64,000 bases of DNA from Dictyostelium discoideum (taxonomy: Eukaryota). The notes below the pieces were generated by a model. It was not told where the DNA came from, did no database searches, and was given only the letters and a program-made list of their open reading frames with translations. This document shows, piece by piece, positions 3,001 through 54,860 of the stretch. The position numbers and the translations under genes are program-made. Numbering within the stretch: position 1 is the first letter of the stretch; each line of letters starts with the position of its first letter. The DNA lies in NCBI GenBank assembly GCA_000004695.1, contig CM000151.3:5376001-5440000 (forward strand), in the 5' to 3' direction.

Positions 3001-3839
3001 TCTACATGGATTGGTTTCCTATTTGAACGTGTTAAAGAACAATCATTACAAATCACAAGAAGATCCGCTGGTTTACCATTTGCTTTCATTGGTATTCTAA
3101 CTGGTGAATCAACTACAAATCAACGTGTTAATCATTTATTAAATCATGTAATGGATAATTTATTAAAATTAGCAAGTGGTTCCGATTTTGATGAAAATAT
3201 TAATAATACCGAAAATCAAGATGATCAATCAAATTTAAATTCTATTGAAAAAAATATTTATTTACCACAAGTTCATTCAATTAATATTTTAAAGAGTATA
3301 TTCCGTGCAAGAGCAATCATTCAAGAATTAGATCAATATCTCGCCGTTACTTTGATTTGTGTTATTAAAGCATTTTCATCAAAATCTTGGTCAGTTAGAA
3401 ATTCTGCGACAATGGCATTCAGTGTATTGGTTGATAGAATCATTGGTACAAAGAAATTGAAAGCAGATTCAACAATTATTAATACTACTACATTTTATCA
3501 TTTCTTTTCAAGAATGCCAATTGTTTATCCATTCCTTTTAGAATACTTTAAAAATTCATTACAATTCATTAAAGAAACTTCACCATTAGTTGAAGAGGGT
3601 AAAATTATTCAATCAACAGTTTACGCTATTTTAGTACTCTTTTCAAGATTACAACCATCAAATATTGATCATCCAAATGATTTATTAGCACCAGCTCAAT
3701 TTGTACCATTAATTTCACAATGTTGTCAATTTTCAAATTATATGGTTCGTCAAATTTCTGCACGTGCTTTAGTTCCATTAATTTCAACAATTGAATTAAT
3801 TCCTTTTATTAGAGATTTAATTAATAAATTAAATGAAAT

Positions 3840-9394: not shown

Positions 9395-10781
9395 ATGAGT
9401 AGTAATAGTTTTTCATCATCATCATCTTCATCATCATTTAAACATAAAACTCCAATCCGATCAAGAACAGAATCATTTCCAAATCCTTCATCATCATCCT
9501 CAATATTAAAGATTAATTTATTTGATACTGTTACAGGATATCTAGAAGATGATAAATCAATTTTGGATCAAATAGAGAATACTATAAATGGTTGTGATTC
9601 AACAACAACAACCTACCATCACCATAATCATACACTTCCACCTCTAATCATAAAATCACCAGATCTAAATAATAACAATAGTAGTAGTAGTAATAATAAT
9701 AATATAAATGAAAATGATGAAAGTGGTTGTATAAATAAAATTAAAATTAGTGATAATGGTGAACTTTCAAAAAAGAGTACAAAAATTACATTTAAAGAAG
9801 ATAATGATTTCGATTTTAAAACAATTGAAGTTTTAGAGAATTTAATGACAGATTTTGGTAAAACTTCATTAACTAGTAGTAATAATAGTAGTTGTAATAG
9901 TAGTAAACATAATAGTAGTTTAAATTTATCAACACCCAACACAACAACCAATACAACAACCAATACATCAACAGCAACATCAACGGCACTGAAAAAATCA
10001 CAGCAAGCAATAATAAATGATTCAAGTGATATAAATTCATTAATTAATGATATTGATTCTTATTTAGTTGATATTCAAGATGAATTAAAGAAACCTACAA
10101 CTGGAATTGAAAATGAGAAATTATTAATATCACCATTAATATCAGAACAAGAACAAGAAGAACAACAACAACAACAACAACAAGAAATATTATTATCAAC
10201 TATTGATGATTTAGTTTCATCTCATAAAAATGTTGATTTGCCACAAGATATCTTGGATATTATGTCATTTTCACCACCAAAATCAACACCATCTTCATCT
10301 TTTAAAATACCTCAATCAACTTCAATGACTGCTATAGCTACTGACCCCGCTGTTGTATCACCTAAAAAAACAAGTTCTTCTTTCATTTCACCATCTTCTT
10401 CTTCAATCCATAAAGATGACGATGATGATAATAATAATAATAACAATAATAATAATTATATTAACGATATCGATAAAAAATCAGTTGAACTTCCACCTGA
10501 AAAAGTAACACCAGGAGATTTACAACAATCTATTGATTCATTAGAAATATCACTTCAATTATTACAAAAGCCACTTGAAAAATTACAACAACAACCACAA
10601 CAACAACAACCACAACCACAACCACAACCACAACCACAACCACAACCACAACCACAACCACAACCACAACCACAACCACAACCACAACCACAACCACAAC
10701 CACAACCACAACCACAACCACAACCACAACAACAACCACAACAACAACCACAACAACCGCAACAACAACAAGAACAACCGC

Positions 10782-10866
<85 letters not shown>

Positions 10867-12022
10867 GCCACAACAACAACAACAACCACAACAAAATAAT
10901 TATTTGTCAATAAAAATTGTTAATAATCCATCGTTATCATCATTTTCAACTTTTGGTAAACTTACACCAAAACAAACACTTGAGAGAAATGATGTTGGAG
11001 AAAAAAATAATACAAATGAAGTTTTGGATACTAATTTTATTAAAAATTCTTTAAATTCAACACAAACTGGTGTATTGTTGGCACCATCTTTCAAAGCTAC
11101 AATGTCAGATTTTGGAAATAATAGAGTTGTTTCAAAAGATACAGAAACCGATGAAATAAAAGATGTTGTTGAAGCAAATAGTAAAAAGGAAGAATCTACC
11201 TCACAAGTTGTTCAAATTGAATTGGCTGCTAATAATAATAATAATGATAATAACAATAATACTAAAAGTGATAATGAAAATCAAATTGAAGAAAGTCAAA
11301 CAAATTTACAACCATTCAATGACGATAATGATGATAATAAAGGTGGCCATGATAATCAATTAAAATCGTCAAATGGTTCATCTTTTAGTAAAACTGAGCT
11401 TTCAACATTAATTGAAACCATTGAATCATTACCAACAATACCACAAACTGTAACAATACAACACACTAAAACAACATCATCATCACCAAAACAACAACAA
11501 TTAGGTTCACAACTTTCAATTAACACCTTAAAATCAATATCTCCACCAGTTCCCCCAAGAACCTATCTTCAACAACCACAACAACCACAACAACAGCAAA
11601 CTAAACCAATAACAATTTCTCCAATAAACACCAATAGCATTAATAATAATAATAATAATGGTTGTAGTGGTGAGCAACAACAACAACCAAATTCACCAAA
11701 ATGGGTATATGGTAGTTCAAGACATAGATTAAATGGATCAGGTTCATCATCGGTTAATAGTGATACATTAACAGATTCTAGTGATTCTTATTCAAGTGGA
11801 ATTAGTAGTTCACCATCATCATCATCATCATCTTCTTCTTCTACCATTTCAACAACTAATAATGAAAAACCAGTAAATGGTAAAATTAAATTAAGAAATC
11901 ATATTTGGAGAAGATCAAATATGGGTGATAATAATTTAACATCAAGTGGTAATCATCCAAGATCTTCAACTGATCCATCTTCATATATTTTTGGTACAAA
12001 TACTATTGTTTCATTAGATTCA

Positions 12023-24737: not shown

Positions 24738-24771
24738 GACGACCTCGTGGTCGTCGGTTTAAAAATAAATT

Positions 24772-24844
24772 CGCCCAACGGGGGGCTCGAACCCCCGACC
24801 ACCAGATTAAGAGTCTGGCGCTCTACCGACTGAGCTAGCCGGGC
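24772..24844 (-). tRNA. tRNA-Lys (anticodon CTT).
   Basis: The reverse complement is GCCCGGCTAGCTCAGTCGGTAGAGCGCCAGACTCTTAATCTGGTGGTCGGGGGTTCGAGCCCCCCGTTGGGCG. The acceptor stem pairs 7/7, the D- and T-arms are canonical (GGTTCGAGCCC), and the anticodon loop is ACTCTTAATCT. It closely matches the eukaryotic tRNA-Lys(CUU) consensus. Confidence 0.9.
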
Positions 24845-25264
24845 ATTTTATGAAATTTTTATTTTAATTACAAAAATTTGTCGGAAATATTTTTTTTATA
24901 AATAAGATCAACCAAGAGTAAATTAAACTATTAATCCACATTTTGACAGAAATTTTAAAAAAATCCAAAAAACATCAACAATGTTATAAAATTAAAATAA
25001 GAAACCAAAATTTTCATTATTTTTTATTTTTTTGAATTAAATTTATAAAAATTAATTTTTTATTAATTTGAATTAAATTTATTTAAATTAATAAAAATTA
25101 GACAAAAAAAAAAAAAGAAATATTTATGGAAAATTAAAAAAAAAAATTAGACCAAAGAAAAGAAATATTTATGGAAAATAAAAAAATTAACTCTGTAAAT
25201 TTCTGTTTTTAACCACTACCAAATATTTCGTTTTTAAAAGCAATAAAACTCAAAAAAATTACAA

Positions 25265-39816: not shown

Positions 39817-40777
39817 AAATAAAAATAAAATAAAAATAAAAATAAAATAAAATAAAAAAATAAAATAAAAAAAATATTTAATTAAAAAATTATAAAAGAA
39901 ATCTTTAATAATAATTTTTTTATTATACTTTAATAAACTATTATTTGGTATTATAAAAAAATGTTATATATTTTTATTAACATTAGTTAATCATTGTTTA
40001 GTTTATATTTTATTTATCAGGCAATTCAATTATTATTTTTAATTTTAAAATACAGTTTTGTTATAATTAATATTTTTATTTTATTTTTTTTTTTTATAAA
40101 TATCCAGTTATAATTAAAATATCCAATTTTGATTTAAATTTTAAAATTTTTTGGAAGTGGGAGCTATGTTTGGACTGGGACAAAATAAACTTTTCTTTTT
40201 AATTTTATTAGGATAAATTTAAGAGATTTTCAGATTAAATCACATTATATAAACAACCAACAAATTAATAAGACACCGGCTTCAACAACAACAACTCCAT
40301 AGGTTAAGAAAAAGGAAGGTGAAATTGAACAATGAGCTACCGGGGCTCATTTAGAGACCATTTTTTTTGCATTTATTTTTTTATTTTTTATTTTATTCTC
40401 AATTATACAAATTAAGATGGCTGATAATTAAAACCAAAACATCCTGTTTTTTAATATGATGGAGTTTAAAATTAAATAAATTACATATATCAAATATAAA
40501 ATTGTAATTAATTATATGAGTTGTCAAATGAGATTGTTTGGGGCACTGGTTTTGGGTTAAAAAAATTTTGCAAATTAACTTATTATAATTGTTTGATTGG
40601 ATCATTTGAAAGTTAGTTTTATATTTTGCTTTTTTTATTTATTCCAAAATAGATATTCTGTACCATTTACTAAGTAGAGTAGAGCATGAGAGTTTTTCTT
40701 CTCCATTTTAAACGTTCTTGGAGCAATTATTGAAAATAGGAAGTTCTTAAAATGGTGCGTGTGCTTTTAAAAAAAAA

Positions 40778-40850
40778 TGTCAAGTCAGAGGATCGAACTC
40801 TGGACCTTAGGATTATGAGACCTACGCTCTACCAACTGAGCCAACCTGAC
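40778..40850 (-). tRNA. tRNA-Met (anticodon CAT), elongator type.
   Basis: The reverse complement is GTCAGGTTGGCTCAGTTGGTAGAGCGTAGGTCTCATAATCCTAAGGTCCAGAGTTCGATCCTCTGACTTGACA. The 7-bp acceptor stem has one G-U, the D-arm is GCTC/GAGC, the anticodon loop is CTCATAA and the T-arm is CAGAG-TTCGATC-CTCTG. It lacks the A1:U72 and GGG/CCC anticodon-stem features of an initiator tRNA. Confidence 0.85.
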
Positions 40851-41521
40851 ATGTTAATGTTTTTTTGTTTTTTTTGTTTTTTTTTGATCGCCCCACAATT
40901 TTTCATTAAATAACAACAAAAATTTTTTTTAATTAAAATGAAAAAAATAATAAACATTTAATAATTAAACTATTAATTTAACTACACATTAAAAAAACAT
41001 TAAATAATAAAATTGATAGGACTTCACTCAAAAATACAAAAATTTGAAAGGGAACATTCACTCAGCCATTACCATAACAGAATACCTAATCCTTAAATAA
41101 TTTAATTTTACCAAAACTGACTCTAAATATAATGGTTTCTTTTCTTTTTCTTTTATTTGATTTTTAAAATTAAATAATCCTGATATTAAAAAAAAAAAAA
41201 CAAAAAAAAAAAAACAAAAAACCTTTTTTTAAATTTAATATAATATCTACAATGAATTTATTTTGAAAGTTTTTTTTTTTATACAAAGAAAAAGAGTTTT
41301 TTAAAAAAAAAAAAGTTATGAGCACTTCTTTAGTTGATTTTTTTTTTTTTTCCTCTTTTTTTTTTTTTCTTGGTTTTTTTTTTTTTTTTTTACTGATAGG
41401 ATTGGTATATTCTTTAATTATTTGTGTATTATAATAATGATTTCCATATTGTTAAATCGATATATTTTTCTTATAATTTATAAGGAAAAGTAATAATGTC
41501 ATTATTATTAATTATCTTATC

Positions 41522-45844: not shown

Positions 45845-48350
<2,506 letters not shown>

Positions 48351-48565: not shown

Positions 48566-49954
48566 TTAAAGTTTAGCAGCATTTGGTTTTGAAGATAAGA
48601 ATCTACCGAGAACAAAAGCACCAGCACGAGCACCTTCAGATAAAGCGATAGCACCAGAAATCATCATTTCAATGGTTGGATCTACAGAACCTTTTGGAAG
48701 AGCTTTGAAGGTATTGATAGTTTTGTTATCGAGGACTTCCCAATTTCTGAGGATATTACCTTCTTGAGTTAAATCCATAGCGATGTGAACGTAGAAACCA
48801 GCACTTTCCATCATACTACGATAGGACATGAGAGAACCCATATGTGGAACAGAGTGATGAGCACAAATTGGTTCAATGAATTGAACGATATCTTTTTCAG
48901 TTGGTTTTTCACATTGTAACCATTCAGAACCAGACATACGACCACCTGGTTTTAAAACTCTGTAACATTCTTTGATGAAAGCTTGTTTATCTGGCATATG
49001 ACAAGTGGATTCAAAGAAAGTGACAACGTCAAAGGTGTTATCTGGGTATGGCATTTTCATGGCATCACCATGATCGAATGAGGCACGGTCAGAGACACCG
49101 AGGTCTTTGGCTCTTTGGGTGGCAATACCGACTTGTTTCTTATTGATGTTAAGACCACGGATTTTGCAACCAGTGTATTGACAGATTTCGAGGGTTGGAC
49201 CACCAACACCACAACCTACATCCAATACTAAACTGTCCTTGGTGATACGAGCGGAATCGGCAACAGAGTGTTCTAAACGTTTGACGGCGGTTTCTAATGG
49301 TTCAGTATCGGTTTTGAATGGAGCGAAATGGAAATGATTACCCCAACCACTTTGGTAGGTTTCAGTGACGATATCATAGTAATCACTGACCATGGTGTTG
49401 TAGTTTTCGACACGTTTCTCTTCCTTTAAACGGACACCTTCGAATTTTTCATCCTTGACAACGTCTTCTTGTGGGGCGATCTTAACGATTGAACCAGTTT
49501 CAACGGTTTTCTTGATTGATTCGAGGAAGGCATTCCAGGTGTGGGTCATTTCACGATTACCCATAGTACGAGCAAAACCAACTAAAAGTTTTGGAATTTC
49601 AATATCGGTTTCAATGTTGGCTTCTGCTGATAATGTGCATTTGTTGGCACCAGTTGATACAATGGTGTATTTACCATAGGATGACATGTTACCTCCTGTC
49701 ATGTTTTCCCATTGAACGGTGGTGGCGTTAACTTTGGTGTATTTGGCAATGTGAGTGGCTTTCATTTGAATTGAACCAACTTTACGTTCTTGCATGGTCC
49801 ATTTGTAGGTATTGGCATTAACCTTTACAACACTATCAACAAATGGATAACATTTGGCAACTGTTGGTACATCTAAAAGGAATGCAATAACTTTTTCTGC
49901 TGATTGATTAATTTCAATTGGTTTTGATTGATGATTAGTTTGAATTAATACCAT
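48566..49954 (-). CDS. SAM-dependent methyltransferase of the sterol 24-C-methyltransferase (SMT/ERG6) family, carrying an additional N-terminal domain of about 175 aa.
   Basis: It is a single 462-aa ORF. The C-terminal 280 aa carry SMT hallmarks: YQSGWGNHFHFAP (region I YEYGWGxSFHF), LDVGCGVGGP (SAM motif I), FDVVTFFESTCHMP (FDxVYxIEATCHAP) and YRVLKPGG. The N-terminal approximately 175 aa (VIAFLLDVPTVAKCYPFVDSVVKVNANTYKWTM...) is not part of canonical SMTs. Third codon positions are strongly C-biased, the Dictyostelium high-expression codon usage. Confidence 0.75.
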   Translation of the reverse strand: MVLIQTNHQSKPIEINQSAEKVIAFLLDVPTVAKCYPFVDSVVKVNANTYKWTMQERKVGSIQMKATHIAKYTKVNATTVQWENMTGGNMSSYGKYTIVSTGANKCTLSAEANIETDIEIPKLLVGFARTMGNREMTHTWNAFLESIKKTVETGSIVKIAPQEDVVKDEKFEGVRLKEEKRVENYNTMVSDYYDIVTETYQSGWGNHFHFAPFKTDTEPLETAVKRLEHSVADSARITKDSLVLDVGCGVGGPTLEICQYTGCKIRGLNINKKQVGIATQRAKDLGVSDRASFDHGDAMKMPYPDNTFDVVTFFESTCHMPDKQAFIKECYRVLKPGGRMSGSEWLQCEKPTEKDIVQFIEPICAHHSVPHMGSLMSYRSMMESAGFYVHIAMDLTQEGNILRNWEVLDNKTINTFKALPKGSVDPTIEMMISGAIALSEGARAGAFVLGRFLSSKPNAAKL

Positions 49955-50167
49955 TTTATTTTTTTTTGTTTTTTTAATTTAAAGGGTTATTGTATTTTGG
50001 TAGGAAAAAAAAAAAATAATAAATTATTTATAAATATAAATTATTTGAAATCCTTAAAAGACTCGGTTTGTTTTTAGATTATATTTATTTAAAAATTATT
50101 GATTTAAATTGAAATTTATTTATTTATAAAAATAAAAAAAACTCGTTTGCCGTTGAACAATGAAAAG

Positions 50168-50199
<32 letters not shown>

Positions 50200-50237
50200 A
50201 AAAAAAATCAGTCGAAAAAAAAAAAAAATAAAAAAAA

Positions 50238-50303
50238 AAAATAAAAATAAAAATAAAAAAAAAATATTTTTAAAATATCTAACAAGCCATCAATCACCAC
50301 CTC

Positions 50304-50344
<41 letters not shown>

Positions 50345-50352
50345 ATTAAAAT
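50238..50352. repeat. Direct repeat copy A; copy B is at about 51563..51676. Each is about 115 bp and imperfect.
   Basis: A: ...aataaaaataaaaaaaaaatatttttaaaatatctaaca-agccatcaatcaccacctcc-(A)37-taattaaaatt. B: ...aataaaaataaaaaaaaatatttttaaaatatctaacacagtgtaagccatcaatcaccacccc-(A)26-taattaaaatt. The shared non-homopolymer core tatttttaaaatatctaaca...agccatcaatcaccacc is unlikely to arise by chance in this background. The two copies bracket the disrupted zinc-finger locus. Confidence 0.7.
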
Positions 50353-50496
50353 TTCAAGTAATCCTTTTAAATTTACTAAATTATCTAATAATCCAAAATT
50401 AAAGCTTTTTTTTTTTTAAAAAAAAAAATAAAAAAAATAAATATTGATAACTTTTTACTTTTTTTTTTTTTATTTGATTAAATTATAAATACATAC

Positions 50497-50668
50497 TTGT
50501 GTTGTTCTACTAAATGTGTTGTTACACTTGATCTATCACCTTTAAATGTTGCTGGACACATTGGACAAATACATGTAAAATTTAGATTTATTCTTTCAGA
50601 ATGTTGTTATTCTAAAATTGAATTCTGTTTTTATTTTGTATTTGGTTAATAAAAACTTTAATTCTAAA

Positions 50669-50700
<32 letters not shown>

Positions 50701-51177
50701 AAACTTACCAATTGACCAGTTTGTAATTTTCTTCTAATGTCACCAAGTAAATAATAGTTTGTAACAGGTTCAGATTTTGAAGTTTGAGTTTGAACGACTG
50801 TTGTAAATTCTGTTAGTGGTTTACCAACAACAATTGCTTTTTCCAATTGGTTCTAAATAACCAACTAAATTTGTAATTTCATTAACATCAGCAATAACAA
50901 ATTTATGTTGATTGAAAATGTGTTCTAATATAGTTCTAGATTAAAATTCAAAATGAGAACATAATAAACATGGATATTTAATACCAGTAGTGTTTGTGTT
51001 GCTTGATACTACCGATGATGTTGATTCTGCATCTGATGCACTTAATCTTCTGCATCTGATGCACTTAATCTTCTGAATCTGATTGATTAATATTTAAATT
51101 ACTAATTGAACCTATTGTTGTTATTGTTATAGTTGTTGAATTTGTTGTTGCTGGGGTTATAATGGTTGGTATTTGTA

Positions 51178-51276
<99 letters not shown>

Positions 51277-51337
51277 AATCAAATGTTAATGATGATTTTA
51301 ATGGTTCAACAGTAGGCCATTTACTCCAATCTTGCAT
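50497..51337 (-). pseudogene. Disrupted REI1/ZNF622-like C2H2 zinc-finger locus, probably a pseudogene or gene fragment.
   Basis: Minus-strand segments encode (a) MQDWSKWPTVEPLKSSLTFDF-N32-...NINQSDSED*; (b) ...DAESTSSVVSSNTNTTGIKYPCLLCSHFEF*SRTILEHIFNQHKFVIADVNEITNLVGYLEPIGK..., a C-x2-C-x12-H-x4-H finger with an in-frame TAA at the x12 position, which aligns to the ZNF622 finger CLFCSHHSSSLMKNVAHMTKDHSFFIPDIEYLSDIKGLIKYLGEK; (c) a second finger ...NFTCICPMCPATFKGDRSSVTTHLVEQH (50497..50592). The three segments are in different frames. None of the candidate GT/AG junctions I examined joins them without creating a stop, though I did not enumerate every possible junction. There is no C-terminal REI1 region downstream. 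A perfect 23-bp tandem duplication (51028..51073) lies between (a) and (b). Confidence 0.5.
51028..51073. repeat. Perfect 23-bp tandem duplication (tgcatctgatgcacttaatcttc, two copies) plus a degenerate partial third copy.
   Basis: A direct read: 51028-51050 equals 51051-51073, and the following bases tgaatctgat repeat the start of the unit with one mismatch. The unit contains an inverted repeat, TGCATC-t-GATGCA. The length is not a multiple of 3, so a copy-number change shifts the frame. Confidence 0.9.
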
Positions 51338-51562
51338 TTTTAATTTATAAATTTATATGTGTGAAAATGAATGTTTACAATAAATGAATAAACAAGGAAC
51401 TGTAATTTTGAGAAAAATAAAAAATTTTAGATTAAACTAGTGTTCGCCAATTTCCGGAAAAAAATTCAAATTATGGTGGAAAATGGAAAATGGAAGATTT
51501 TCCACCATATTTATAAATAATAGAATTAATTGGAAAAAAGATTATAAAAAAAAAAAAAATAG

Positions 51563-51676
51563 AAAAAATAAAAATAAAAAAAAATATTTTTAAAATATCT
51601 AACACAGTGTAAGCCATCAATCACCACCCCAAAAAAAAAAAAAAAAAAAAAAAAAAATAATTAAAATTACTGTAAT
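51563..51676. repeat. Direct repeat copy B, partner of 50238..50352.
   Basis: See copy A. Confidence 0.7.
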
Positions 51677-51802
51677 TTTTGGGATAGCAACACTTTATTT
51701 TTTATTAAAACTTGGCATTACCAAAATAACCAAAAAAAAAAAAAAAAAAAAATTAAGGTGTACTTAATAAGATAATTTTAGGATAAAAAAAATTAAAACA
51801 TT

Positions 51803-51837
<35 letters not shown>

Positions 51838-52575
51838 TAAGTCCTCTTTTTGTATACTTAAATTTGCAACTCCAGTATCTTAATTCCTTTTATGTTTTTG
51901 AAATAAAATTTTTTTGTTAGTTTTGATTTTTTTAAATCTTGAAAAATTATTAAGGTTATATTTTTTACTTTTCAATATTATAATTATTATTATTATTTTT
52001 TACTTTTCAATATTATTATTATTAATATTTTATCACAATTTATTTTTTTCAATTTTTTTTTTTTTTTTTTTTTTTTAAAAAATTTTTATTAAAAAAAAAA
52101 ATTTTTGAAATTATCCAAATCTTTTTTTTTTTTTTCTTTTTTTTTTTTTTTAAAAAATTAACACCACAACAACCACCCAAACCTCACACCTTTTTCTTTT
52201 TTTCTTTTTTTTTCTTTTTTTTTCCACATATCCTTTTTATTTATATTCTTTTTCTTTTGTAATACTTTGGTTATAAGAAAAGATATCACAATAAAAAAAA
52301 AAACACAAAAAAAAAAAAAACACAAAAAAAAACAAAAAAAAAAAAACAACACAACTCATACTCACTGCCACACCACACCTCGCATCTTTCACTCACACCC
52401 TTCAACTGTTTAAACACTACATATATCATCTATATATATATTTTTTTTTTTCATTCACATACAATTGTATATTTTTTCCTTTTTTTTTTTTTTTTTTTTT
52501 TTTGTTTTTTTCCTCTTATAAACAATTATTTAATTTTATTATTTTAAATATTTTTTTTCTTCTTTCAAATAAAAA

Positions 52576-54860
52576 ATGTCGGCAACCAAAATTCACAACA
52601 GTTATAACGATGTGTAAGTAAAATTTTTTTTTTTTTATTTATTTTTTTTTAATAATACATATTTCTTTTTTATTTTTTTATTTTTCTCTTTTTCTTTTTA
52701 TTTTTTTTTATTTTTTTTGTTATTTTTCATAAAAAATAAACAAATATATAAATAAAAAAAAAAAAAAACTAATATTAAATTTTTTTTATTTATTTTTTTT
52801 ATTTAAATAGACCATCAGCAGTTTTACATATTAGATCAATTCCACAAGGTACAACAGAAAATGATTTATTTAAAATTACATTTGATCATAAATTTGGAAA
52901 ATGTGTTTCAGTTAGAATTTTAGAAAGATTTCATCAAGCACTTTTAGAGATGGATTCAGTTGAGAGTGCAACCAGACTTTTGAAATACAGCCAAAAGAAT
53001 TCATTACTTTTACACGGTAAACCAGTTCAAATCTCTTTCTCAAAAAGTCAATCAATCAATCAACCAACACCACAATCACCAACCAATACCACCACCACCA
53101 CTAATACTACCTCATCATCATCATCATCTCACCGTTCATCACCATCATCATCATCTTATAATGGATTACCACAAGCTGGTAGTCGTCAATCAAATTTTTC
53201 ACCAAATACAAATAATAGTGCACCAATTGCAGGTACAGTATTATTAAGTACAATTGAAAATCCAGGTTCAAACAGTATTACAATCGATCACCTTTATCAT
53301 GTATTCTCTTCATGTGGTGAGGTATTGAGAATCGTTATGTTTAACAAGAACAATTTACAAGCCCTCATTGAATTTTCAACTGTTGAAAGTGCACTCCATG
53401 CAAAGAAAACACTTTCAAATCATAGTCTTTTCCATGGTGGTCAATGTACATTGAAATTAGAGGTCTCAAAAACTGATCGTTTAAATATCACTCAAAATAC
53501 AGACAGAGCAAAGGATTTCTCAAAATCATTACCAACAGTTAATCAATCATCATCATCATCATCACAACAACAATCTTATTATCAATCTAATGGTAATAAT
53601 AACAATAATAATCAACAACAACAACATAGTAATAATCATCACCACCAATCATCATCATCACCATCTCAAGGCAGTCATCACCATCATCACAATAATAACA
53701 ACAACAATAATCACCATAGTCATCATCATTCATCACCATCACAACATCCACATCATAGTGGATCAGTTTCAACTAATCAACAAATTGGTAATCATCATAG
53801 TCATCATCATGGACATAACCATCATGGTGGTAGTCATCATCATCATAATCATCAAAATGGTGGCAATATTGGTCATCATAGAACCACAGTGTTATTAGTA
53901 CATGGTCTTGATGAAGCTGTTATGACATGTGATCGTATTTTCAATCTTTTCTGTGTCTATGGTAACGTACAAAGAGTAAAGATTCTTTCATCCAAAAAAG
54001 GTGCAGCATTGGTGCAAATGGAAGATGTTCAACAAGCAGAAGCAGTCATTAGATTCTATCACCAAATGCCACTATTCAAAGATACCCTTCAAATCAATTA
54101 CTCCAAACATCTATCAATCACAGATTCTCACAATCCAGAATCACCAACACTCTCAAAGGATTTTGCTCAATCCAATTTGAATCGTTTCACTCATCCAATC
54201 AATACCTACAAACATTTGTATAAACCATCACAAACTTTATACTTTTCAAATGTTCCAAAGGATTTCACAGAGACAAATTTCAATCAATTATTCCAATCTT
54301 TAAACCTTCAAAAACCAGTTGGTTTCAAAATCTTCTCTGCTCAATTGGCCCCTGGTGCTTCATCAGTACCAACTGTCGCTTCACCAACCACTCCAACTGG
54401 TGTTGTCACTGGTGTCTCTTCACCAAGTGTCAATGGTGGCGGTGCTGGTAGTGGTGCTTCAACTGTTGGTACAAACATTGCCAATAACACTACTACCTCT
54501 GTAAATGGAATTAGTAGTAATAGCTCAACACCTGAACCATCAAAACATGCCGATAAAATCGTTGGTCTTTTAGAGTTCTCTTCACCAGCTAATGCAATCG
54601 ATGCTTTGGTACTTTTAAATAACTCTGTTTTACCAAATTCAAATCATATGGGTTTAAGACTTTCATTTAGTAACTCTACAGTTTTACCAAAATCTTCAAC
54701 AAGTAATAATAATAATAATAATACTAATAACACCACCACCACTTCCACCAACACCAATAATAATAATAGCAACAATATCGCCTCACCACAACAACCACAA
54801 CAATTCCAACAACCACAACAACCACAACAACAATCTCCAACAACTCAAAAACTTTTTTAA
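52576..54860 (+). CDS. Polypyrimidine tract-binding protein / hnRNP-L-like protein with four PTB-type RRMs. Exons 52576..52613, 52811..54860.
   Basis: Exon 1 MSATKIHNSYND ends at GTAAGT at 52614. An AG at 52809-52810 and phase 2 give V-PSAVLHIRSIPQGTTENDLFKI...QALLEMDSVESATRLLKYSQKNSLLLHGKPVQISFSKSQ (compare PTBP1 SRVIHIRKLP...[41 protein letters not shown]). RRM2 is ITIDHLYHVFSSCGEVLRIVMFNKNNLQALIEF; RRM3 is VLLVHGLDEAVMTCDRIFNLFCVYGNVQRVKILSSKKGAALVQMED; RRM4 is TLYFSNVPKDFTETNFNQLF...IVGLLEFSSPANAIDALVLLNN. A His/Gln/Ser-rich low-complexity insert lies between RRM2 and RRM3. Confidence 0.85.

Follow-up and report, generated by a model that had tools for sequence, protein, structure and literature searches.

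In Dictyostelium genomes, pseudogenes and partial copies of genes occur commonly, as the tgr family illustrates (PMC12745789). Mechanisms that place DNA from one locus into another include ectopic DNA capture and template switching, MMEJ/TMEJ, SDSA and MMBIR/FoSTeS (cf. PMC5087911, PMC5104497, PMC7165422; for NUMT/NORG insertions, PMC12129026).

We analysed a locus at positions 50238–51676 of the window, i.e. the whole 64-kb stretch of DNA under study, on chromosome 2 of Dictyostelium discoideum, where it adjoins the gene DDB_G0275359. All features described below are on the minus strand. The best explanation, to which we assign a probability of about 0.88, is that the locus is a pseudogene formed by partial, non-processed duplication of the ZNF277 ortholog of D. 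discoideum, which was captured at the DNA level and then decayed neutrally. The preliminary description had considered that a gene fragment had been duplicated or transposed and was decaying where it lies, and this view is borne out. Like other pseudogenes of this class, the locus is a DNA-level copy of part of its parent at an unrelated site, with promoter and introns kept and with unconstrained decay. In contrast to the tgr-type fragments, it stands alone, outside any expanding family cluster, and was copied between chromosomes from a housekeeping-type gene that is single-copy. It also differs from usual partial pseudogenes in that both junctions survive along with the empty site, which makes the target duplication and the microhomology directly readable.

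The locus resembles products of break capture and template switching in several respects, i.e. a non-homologous site has received about 1.2 kb from another chromosome, an 8-bp microhomology is found at one junction and possibly filler at the other, and the target is duplicated as if the departure point had been re-copied. It differs in that the target duplication of 123–139 bp is longer than typical end-joining footprints. The likeness is one of sequence, and it assigns neither a pathway nor a Dictyostelium repair enzyme to the event.

The filled site and its empty counterparts

The insertion lies in the spacer between an RRM gene and the methyltransferase gene DDB_G0275359. Direct repeats of ~115 bp had been noted around the block, and they were indeed found as two copies of a sequence termed R. 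The downstream target copy, R-left (50215–50353, 139 bp), is contiguous with the ancestral downstream flank (CGACTGA...) and the DDB_G0275359 promoter. The upstream target copy, R-right (51546–51668, 123 bp), is contiguous with the ancestral upstream flank, and orthologs of the adjoining positions 51669–51760 are found upstream of the single R in four related loci (L012–L015). The alignment of the two copies contains 111 matches, 5 mismatches and 30 gap columns, with the gaps mainly reflecting homopolymer length plus one 7-bp indel. The R core comprises the sequences AGCCATCAATCACCACC and TATTTTTAAAATATCTAACA; the first of these, a 17-mer, occurs exactly twice in 64 kb versus 0.03 occurrences expected. 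Generic repeat finding and unfiltered blastn mostly returned low-complexity matches in this AT-rich DNA, and the top matches alone were used. A larger tandem duplication extending beyond R was considered and rejected, as similarity outside R is only at the level expected for AT-rich sequence. R was also inspected by eye as a DUSE-like ncRNA promoter motif, and no match to the consensus, CCCAYAA, was seen.

Eight orthologous loci (L007–L010 and L012–L015) are empty sites that contain one R and no fragment. They stem from D. citrinum, D. dimigraforme, D. firmibasis, D. cf. discoideum and two divergent isolates labelled D. discoideum. The spacer is 1.15–1.50 kb long at these eight sites, versus 2.6 kb in a second assembly with a filled site and 3.0 kb in the window, the latter value being measured from the printed ORF. 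On their outer sides, R-right and R-left adjoin sequences that match the two flanks of the single R at the empty sites. The presence of a single R without the fragment at all eight sites indicates that the repeats are a 123/139-bp target-site duplication and not transposon ends. A presence/absence polymorphism within D. discoideum, as the empty loci L014 and L015 might suggest, was rejected, since these isolates are 88–92% identical to the window and thus represent divergent lineages.

The second assembly (L002, GCA_054883475.1) is independent of the window assembly and 99.0% identical to it over 21.5 kb. It also contains a 23-bp tandem duplication described below, the stop codon in the first zinc finger and both repeats, and homopolymer lengths and one SNP are the sole differences at the locus. 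The locus is therefore not an assembly artefact, and the concern that the 23-bp duplication might be one is settled by its recurrence.

Two explanations take the repeats to be something other than a product of the insertion, and we regard each of them as very improbable. The first, a repeat-bounded mobile cassette, had been offered in the preliminary description; in a Pack-MULE/Helitron-type capture the 120-bp repeats would be the termini of an element. Such captures, like retroposed pseudogenes, likewise leave a gene fragment at a new locus between direct repeats, and an unexplained palindromic segment at one end of the insert would also fit. This proposal falls on the finding that R is a resident, single-copy local target sequence in eight related genomes, with each of the two copies in the window joined to one ancestral flank. 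In addition, the locus differs from such elements in having neither element termini nor a transposase: no terminal inverted repeats were noticed by eye at the insert ends, no transposase-like ORF of at least 70 aa was listed across the block, and the only further copies of the R core and the palindrome in the window and the 16 fetched loci are those at the corresponding locus of L002. A target-site duplication of 123–139 bp far exceeds those of known cut-and-paste transposases.

The second is a local rearrangement. Unequal recombination can both be mediated by direct repeats and produce them, and such repeats would fit a gene that was resident between pre-existing R copies, or that arose by tandem duplication or non-allelic recombination, and that later lost its 3′ half. 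There is very little room for such a history, because in 8 of 8 related genomes the site contains a single R and is free of ZNF277 sequence, and the full gene lies in a conserved, different context in the three species fetched. Moreover, the sequences beyond the two R copies are not mutually similar. Lastly, the fragment and the parent have D. discoideum-clade residues in common (Leu in SDSEDLSASD and Gly in QTGQL), which argues for a recent copy and against an ancient resident.

The parental gene and the copied segment

The intact parent encodes a protein of 519 aa in D. discoideum AX4 (XP_638753.1/EAL65393.1/Q54Q44). It is located on a 5.58-Mb contig, the neighbour gene in the window on an 8.48-Mb contig, and parent and locus are on different contigs in the assemblies in which both were located. 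In the DNA comparisons, the parent was represented by the loci L011 and L016 of D. cf. discoideum and L001 of D. dimigraforme. In these three fetched loci the full gene lies downstream of a minus-strand gene of ~1,100 aa, which is an Ank-repeat gene in L001. When the 519-aa parent was compared with the window by tblastn, matches were restricted to 50493–51337, and residues 236–519 were absent from the whole 64 kb. A missing C-terminal half had been described for a member of the REI1 family; the absence is real, but what is absent is this part of the ZNF277 parent.

Both introns and ~100 bp of upstream sequence are colinear with L011, L016 and L001, which argues for a copy made at the DNA level. 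The segment begins with the co-copied parental promoter and 5′ leader (51338–51437, ~100 bp above the ATG), which align with all three loci. They are followed by an exon 1 remnant (50709–51337, ATG at 51337–51335) that was also aligned to the parental loci. No splice junction restoring an ORF had been found in the preliminary description, and the frame is indeed disrupted; however, two genuine, conserved introns exist (50708–50625 and 50496–50405) that had been missed. Intron 1 (GTAAGT...ACAG) is retained with deletions of 49 bp and 15 bp relative to L011, and intron 2 (GTATGT...AAAAAG) is retained with a collapsed (ATT)n tract. Between them, exon 2 (50497–50624) has the parental length of 128 nt and includes finger 2 (50499–50573). 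Only the first 59 nt of exon 3 are present (NFNFGLLDNLVNLKGLLEIL, 50346–50404), and the parental homology ends there. The 3′ end of the fragment is 92% identical to positions 11012–11076 of L001 over 65 bp.

The retained introns and promoter exclude an RNA intermediate, so that we give practically no credence to a processed pseudogene retroposed from ZNF277 mRNA by the machinery of a non-LTR retrotransposon (TRE/L1-like). A dispersed, interchromosomal dead copy with a target duplication at its flanks and a poly-A/T run at the junctions would be compatible with retroposition, but here the A/T runs at the junctions are part of the ancestral target, the copy keeps the 5′ region of the gene and is truncated at its 3′ end, i.e. 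the opposite of the usual 5′ truncation, and neither a transcript 3′ UTR nor a poly(A) tail is present. No tRNA is located near the locus, so that insertion of a tRNA-targeted TRE retroelement is not indicated. A search of positions 49900–52950 against Rfam gave no match at E ≤ 0.1.

Decay of the copy and its family of origin

The fragment carries two nonsense codons, four frameshifting indels (−1, +23, +2 and +2), a 21-bp deletion and the truncation in exon 3. In exon 1, the (AAT)n tract (51178–51275) is expanded by 72 bp relative to the L011 parent, so that the fragment has 32 Asn versus ~8–12 in the orthologs. The perfect 23-bp tandem duplication that had been described was recovered at 51025–51070 (TRF score 111), where it lies between two CAGAA microrepeats; the 23-bp unit is without one T of the parental GAT-TTA-AGT, resulting in a net gain of 22 bp. 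Finger 1 (zf-C2H2_2, 50905–50970) contains the in-frame TAA reported earlier (CLLCSHFEF*SRTILEHIFNQH, 50943–50941), at a codon that is GAA in L011, L016 and L001 and Glu in every ortholog protein, including the AX4 parent. Two 2-bp insertions (CA at 50849–50848 and TG at 50832–50831; together 50831–50849) scramble the conserved YLEHWKKQFVGK stretch. At 50739–50740, an in-frame deletion of 21 bp has removed the seven codons for ILPQDQD, which are flanked by a GAYATT microrepeat in the parent. In exon 2, a CAA codon has been changed to a second in-frame TAA (50609–50607) that had previously been overlooked. The Met/poly-Asn ORF (51337 to 51065), finger 1 and finger 2 are in three different frames, in agreement with the preliminary description.

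Substitutions are also indicative of relaxed constraint. On the fragment branch, which includes the D. discoideum stem, 8 nonsynonymous changes (2 of them nonsense) were counted versus 1 synonymous change, compared with 19:25 on the parental branches (Fisher p = 0.024; the count is small). At least six missense changes are at columns that are invariant in all eight orthologs. An intact parent elsewhere, retained introns and promoter, disabling mutations and relaxed constraint were thus all found, as is typical of duplicated pseudogenes. The copy never held the C-terminal fingers, and after the insertion it decayed neutrally, with nonsense codons, frameshifts, a deletion, poly-Asn expansion and an excess of nonsynonymous changes.

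The preliminary description had left open a programmed readthrough or a strain-specific nonsense allele. More generally, a live gene would have an ATG-initiated ORF, a co-copied promoter and canonical GT...AG ends in both introns, all of which the locus has, and would be expressed via stop-codon readthrough, programmed frameshifting or unusual splicing, or would carry a recent nonsense mutation. This can be set aside almost entirely, because at least eight independent disabling lesions, including two stops, four frameshifts, a seven-codon deletion and the truncation, would have to be bypassed, an intact parent exists, and the lesions are common to two assemblies that are 1% apart. The 8:1 ratio and the missense changes at invariant columns also argue against it. 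In addition, the product is recorded in no protein source searched, and the 90-aa ORF of the locus is absent from a collection of 15 billion proteins.

The sequence comparisons indicate that the locus derives from the ZNF277 ortholog. A repaired version of the fragment is 93% identical to the D. discoideum AX4 ortholog at the protein level and aligns by BLASTP with residues 24–201 of bird ZNF277 (E = 5e-36), the alignment being colinear over 175 residues and covering both fingers and the linker. When used as a query, the 149-aa repaired fragment had one match, a half-gene model from D. dimigraforme. A reconstructed full-length ortholog matched proteins named “zinc finger protein 277” (E ~1e-80), and it also retrieved a cluster of Dictyostelium proteins of 501–519 aa that includes the AX4 parent. 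Relative to the D. discoideum ortholog, the fragment covers the N-terminal ~235 residues, with finger 1, the linker (HKFVIADV..., NYYLL) and finger 2.

An origin from a paralog of the 60S biogenesis factor REI1/ZNF622, as first proposed, has next to no probability. Finger 1 is a Pfam zf-C2H2_2 finger (PF12756, E = 7.7e-7), which is the only feature that the REI1/ZNF622 and ZNF277 families have in common, and the preliminary description had been guided by this finger and by the F-I-x-D...L..YL spacing that follows it. In a sequence search of the PDB, residues 253–303 of ZNF622 matched finger 1 and the next ~25 residues marginally (E = 0.0098), and yeast REI1 matched in the finger region only (E ~1.2). 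ZNF277 gives the better match, by over 30 orders of magnitude, and the overall architecture and orthology of the fragment belong to ZNF277. The intact paralog that the REI1 assignment predicted does exist elsewhere in the genome, but it is the ZNF277 ortholog.

The fragment is a relic, not a functional member, of the ZNF277 family. A functional ZNF277 would be expected to have about five C2H2 fingers in an open frame, whereas only residues 1 to ~235 are represented here, in a destroyed reading frame, and residues 236–519, including the C-terminal fingers, are lacking. In human ZNF277, which is associated with uS5/RPS2, the two C-terminal fingers are reported to be most important for uS5 binding (PMC10216425).

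Junctions, route of insertion and implications

At the 3′ junction, the parental exon 3 and the start of R have 8 bp in common (AATTTTAA, 50346–50353), as expected for a templated insertion with microhomology. At the 5′ junction, R-right ends in a poly-T run, and a long poly-T run also directly precedes the start of homology in the D. cf. discoideum parents L011 and L016. Between R-right and the parental promoter lies a segment of ~108 bp (51438–51545) that the window and L002 both have, exclusively at the filled site, and that contains an inverted repeat with 16-nt arms (51469–51484/51497–51512). The segment could not be aligned with the sequences upstream of the parental gene in L011, L016 and L001, blastn-short against the window and all fetched loci returned poly-T matches only, and an exact-motif search of the same sequences found it only at the filled site. 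It may be either filler DNA or parental upstream sequence specific to D. discoideum.

The copied stretch of the parental gene, which is on a different contig or chromosome, measures ~1.1–1.2 kb and runs from the promoter, of which it has ~100 bp or more, through exons 1 and 2 and introns 1 and 2 into exon 3, of which it has 59 nt. The anatomy of the junctions suggests that the insertion most likely arose when a staggered break was repaired, or by a template switch during replication, of the MMBIR/FoSTeS or SDSA kind. Once R had been copied, the nascent end would have departed from the target and continued on the ectopic ZNF277 template. Re-annealing via the 8-bp microhomology at the start of R would then have led to a second copying of R, and thereby to the duplication of ~125 bp of target. 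A target duplication of this length is not diagnostic of any one repair pathway. The event took place in the D. discoideum lineage; it postdates the separation from lineages with ~10% divergence and predates that of two isolates with 1% divergence. Slippage between short direct repeats probably produced the 23-bp duplication and the 21-bp deletion at a later time.

R is a conserved GC-containing upstream element, the second copy of which now stands before the dead 5′ fragment of ZNF277. Functional consequences are conceivable, although we consider them improbable. The R copy together with the parental promoter could yield a transcribed pseudogene RNA, acting as a source of small RNAs or as a decoy on ZNF277 mRNA, or the DDB_G0275359 promoter could have been rewired. 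Separately, and just as speculatively, the combination of a ~125-bp duplication with microhomology could mark a recurrent repair pathway, not yet described in Dictyostelium, that seeds dispersed gene fragments.

Biologically, the locus is an ordinary duplicated pseudogene whose insertion scars are unusually legible. It adds no gene, recoding event or mobile element to D. discoideum, and in annotations it should be labelled as a ZNF277-derived pseudogene and not as REI1-like. The filled site, the eight empty sites and the parental gene together provide a clean natural example of the interchromosomal insertion of a gene fragment, and such cases help to calibrate the picture of the origin and decay of dispersed gene fragments in a genome that is extremely AT-rich and prone to repeats.

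The locus and its reading frames

The zinc-finger feature lies on the minus strand in the spacer between a methyltransferase-like gene and an RRM gene. The former adjoins it (48566-49954, minus strand), and its 462-aa ORF is identical to DDB_G0275359 of D. discoideum AX4, whose 8.48-Mb contig corresponds to chromosome 2; on the other side is the divergently oriented RRM gene (52950-54860). The G+C content of the window is ~22%, with poly-A/T in the spacers and (AAT)n as coding repeats. The spacer upstream of the insertion contains a 35-bp tandem repeat (51959-52029, 2.0 copies, 94% matches). Elsewhere in the window, an RRM-containing ORF (45845-46483) has downstream of it a long ORF (47001-48350) that encodes dozens of (S/T)QRD repeats together with poly-Asn/His tracts, and the two are probably parts of one gene for a low-complexity RNA-binding protein. 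Two minus-strand tRNA genes are also present, for tRNA-Lys(CTT) (24771-24845) and tRNA-Met(CAT) (40777-40851); the TRE retroelements of Dictyostelium usually target genes of this type.

Minus-strand translation placed the Met/poly-N ORF and the two fingers in three different frames, as the preliminary description had claimed. The ATG at 51337 starts a 90-codon ORF (MQDWSKWPTVEPLKSSLTFDF-poly-N-...SDSED*), finger 1 is in a second frame, with the previously noted in-frame TAA at 50943-50941 (YPCLLCSHFEF*SRTILEHIFNQH), and finger 2 (CICPMCPATFKGDRSSVTTHLVEQH) is in the third. The 90-aa ORF has no Pfam domain and no record in the protein collections searched, and Rfam yielded no match in the locus. 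The perfect 23-bp tandem duplication was located at 51025-51070. An independent assembly (L002, GCA_054883475.1), 99.0% identical to the window over 21.5 kb (92 mismatches), shares this duplication, the stops and both direct repeats, and differs locally only in homopolymer lengths and one SNP. The structure is therefore confirmed, and the suspected assembly artefact can be dismissed.

A decayed partial copy of ZNF277

The fragment contains a zf-C2H2_2 finger (Pfam PF12756, E=7.7e-7), a type that also occurs in REI1/ZNF622, which explains why the locus had been assigned to that family. This assignment was wrong: the ZNF622 match is confined to one finger (E=0.0098), whereas the frame-repaired fragment is colinear with bird ZNF277 over residues 24-201 (E=5e-36). 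A database search with the repaired fragment found a D. dimigraforme protein with 73% identity. With this 149-aa query, the word-indexed search returned a single match and missed the 93%-identical AX4 parent; the longer query, i.e. the reconstructed ortholog, recovered the whole ZNF277 family. This D. dimigraforme ortholog (L001, 10001-12777) is annotated as two genes, ACTA71_001926 (231 aa), which reads into intron 2, and ACTA71_001925 (296 aa), although the true gene runs on through a long (AAT)n-rich intron into the second gene model. The division into two models is apparently an annotation error brought about by this intron, given that the sequence reconstructed by splicing is colinear with the orthologs of 501-519 aa. 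The reconstruction matches many proteins named "zinc finger protein 277" (E ~1e-80) as well as the Dictyostelium ortholog cluster of 501-519 aa that includes AX4 XP_638753.1/Q54Q44. The names of the matches, the colinearity and the 93% identity of the repaired fragment to the AX4 protein thus identify the intact D. discoideum ZNF277 ortholog on a different contig as the source. This parent is on a 5.58-Mb contig, and the two loci are on different contigs also in the other assemblies from which both were fetched.

The copy was aligned to the parental loci of D. cf. discoideum (L011, L016) and D. dimigraforme (L001). On the minus strand, homology begins at 51437, ~100 bp upstream of the ATG, and extends through exon 1 (51337-50709), intron 1 (50708-50625), exon 2 (50624-50497, 128 nt as in the parent) and intron 2 (50496-50405), and it ends 59 nt into exon 3 (50404-50346). 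When the 519-aa parent served as tblastn query, residues 236-519 were found nowhere in the window, so that the C-terminal half is indeed missing. The retained introns and promoter show that the template was DNA, not mRNA, which rules out a processed pseudogene.

Relative to the parents, the introns are shrunken and the copy has accumulated an (AAT)n expansion of 72 bp (51178-51275), a +3 insertion, the 23-bp duplication between two CAGAA repeats, preceded by the loss of one T from GAT-TTA-AGT (together net +22), a GAA>TAA nonsense mutation (50943), two +2 insertions (CA, 50849-50848; TG, 50832-50831), a 21-bp deletion between GAYATT repeats that removes ILPQDQD (50739), and a CAA>TAA nonsense mutation (50609). 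Ordinary slippage between direct repeats of 5-6 bp accounts for both the 23-bp duplication and the 21-bp deletion. Homopolymeric codon tracts are unstable in the pseudogene and the AX4 parent alike: poly-Asn comprises 32 codons in the pseudogene versus 8-12 in the orthologs, and in the AX4 parent a poly-Thr run has expanded and two residues have changed (N, V), neither of which is seen in the fragment or in D. cf. discoideum.

A parsimony reconstruction with three parental sequences assigned the substitutions in the copied region to branches. On the fragment branch there are eight nonsynonymous changes, two of them nonsense, and one synonymous change, versus ratios of 3:5, 4:6 and 12:14 on the functional branches (Fisher p=0.024 against the pooled functional branches). 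At least six missense changes affect columns invariant across 8/8 orthologs. Lesions and substitution pattern together are the signature of neutral decay. The multiple stops and frameshifts and the intact parent elsewhere speak against programmed readthrough or a strain-specific nonsense allele, and a functional ZNF277 gene is incompatible with the lesions and the absence of residues 236-519.

Direct repeats, empty sites and junctions

The bracketing direct repeats with a GC-containing core were found as described. The left (50215-50353) and right (51546-51668) copies align with 111 matches and 5 mismatches, plus 30 gap columns that chiefly reflect homopolymer length differences and one 7-bp indel. 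The 17-nt GC-containing core occurs exactly twice in the 64 kb (expected: 0.03). For comparison, we analyzed the orthologous spacers of D. dimigraforme (L007), D. firmibasis (L008), D. citrinum (two assemblies: L009, L010), D. cf. discoideum (likewise two: L012, L013) and two divergent isolates labelled D. discoideum (L014, L015). These are 1.15-1.50 kb long; the D. discoideum spacer measures 2.6 kb by the L002 gene model and 3.0 kb in the window from the printed ORF. Each of the eight contains a single repeat-like element and none contains ZNF277 sequence. The flanks of this single element have their orthologs upstream of the right copy on one side and downstream of the left copy (CGACTGA... 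plus the methyltransferase promoter) on the other, and the block is therefore an insertion. The repeat is a resident target sequence that was duplicated, yielding a target-site duplication of 123/139 bp, and not the terminus of a transposon, which removes the basis for a repeat-bounded mobile cassette.

Because the site is filled in the window and L002 and empty in the more distant lineages examined, the insertion can be dated to the D. discoideum lineage proper. Two residues of the fragment agree with this dating, i.e. Leu in SDSEDLSASD, common to the D. discoideum/cf. clade, and Gly in QTGQL, common to AX4 only. L014 (GCA_054859385.1) and L015 (GCA_054859355.1) are as divergent from the window as D. 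cf. discoideum, and their identity of only ~88-92% at the locus suggests cryptic lineages under the D. discoideum species name.

Within the repeat there is also a GC-bearing motif (on the minus strand, GGGGTGG[TGAT]TGATGGC..TTAGATATTTTAAAA; window 50270-50305 and 51590-51632; L012-L015 ~3600-3740; L008-L010 ~9600-9700). It is a candidate promoter element, because its position ~300-350 bp upstream of the DDB_G0275359 ATG is conserved in most discoideum-clade genomes examined; it is only partly kept in D. dimigraforme, and D. discoideum now has two copies.

The 3' junction of the insert joins parental exon 3 (...CTTGAAATTTTAAAAGAG) to the target (...ACAGTAATTTTAATTATTT) and reads ...CTTGAAATTTTAATTATTT; the shared letters thus define an 8-bp microhomology, AATTTTAA (50346-50353). 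At the 5' end, the right repeat terminates in a poly-T run, followed by ~108 bp (51545-51438) that have no alignable counterpart upstream of the relatives' parental genes and occur nowhere else in the window or in 16 loci, except for the L002 equivalent. This segment may be D. discoideum-specific parental upstream sequence or filler. It includes an inverted repeat with 16-nt arms and a 12-nt spacer (51469-51484/51497-51512, AATTATGGTGGAAAAT/ATTTTCCACCATATTT), which overlaps a TGGAAAA x2.7 microrepeat and is seen only at the filled site (window, L002). A poly-T-mediated switch is plausible at this junction, since the D. cf. discoideum parents (L011, L016) have a long poly-T run exactly where homology begins.

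Mechanism and classification

The sequence comparisons show a partial, interchromosomal copy made at the DNA level; its insertion duplicated a long stretch of the target and left microhomology at one junction, and neutral decay followed. The event would have occurred during break repair or replication. A staggered break could have been filled in before capture of the ectopic fragment. Alternatively, in a template switch, the nascent strand would have left the target once the repeat was copied, copied the ZNF277 locus from the promoter into exon 3, and re-annealed at AATTTTAA, the start of the repeat, which would then have been copied twice. Reports on other systems describe comparable captures of ectopic sequences and template switches (PMC5087911, PMC5104497, PMC7165422).

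The intact parent elsewhere, the retained introns and promoter, the disabling mutations and the relaxed constraint characterize a non-processed duplicated pseudogene, and the earlier view of a gene fragment decaying in place was right. Dictyostelium genomes commonly contain partial gene fragments (PMC12745789), and the locus belongs to this known class. In human ZNF277, the C-terminal fingers are most needed for the uS5 interaction (PMC10216425); the copy lacked them even prior to decay, and thus a function of a protein product is not expected. A putative transcript from the co-copied promoter may have a non-coding role. The interest of the locus is confined to its annotation and to the preservation of filled site, empty sites and parent together, an unusually full record of a long target duplication with microhomology at the junction.
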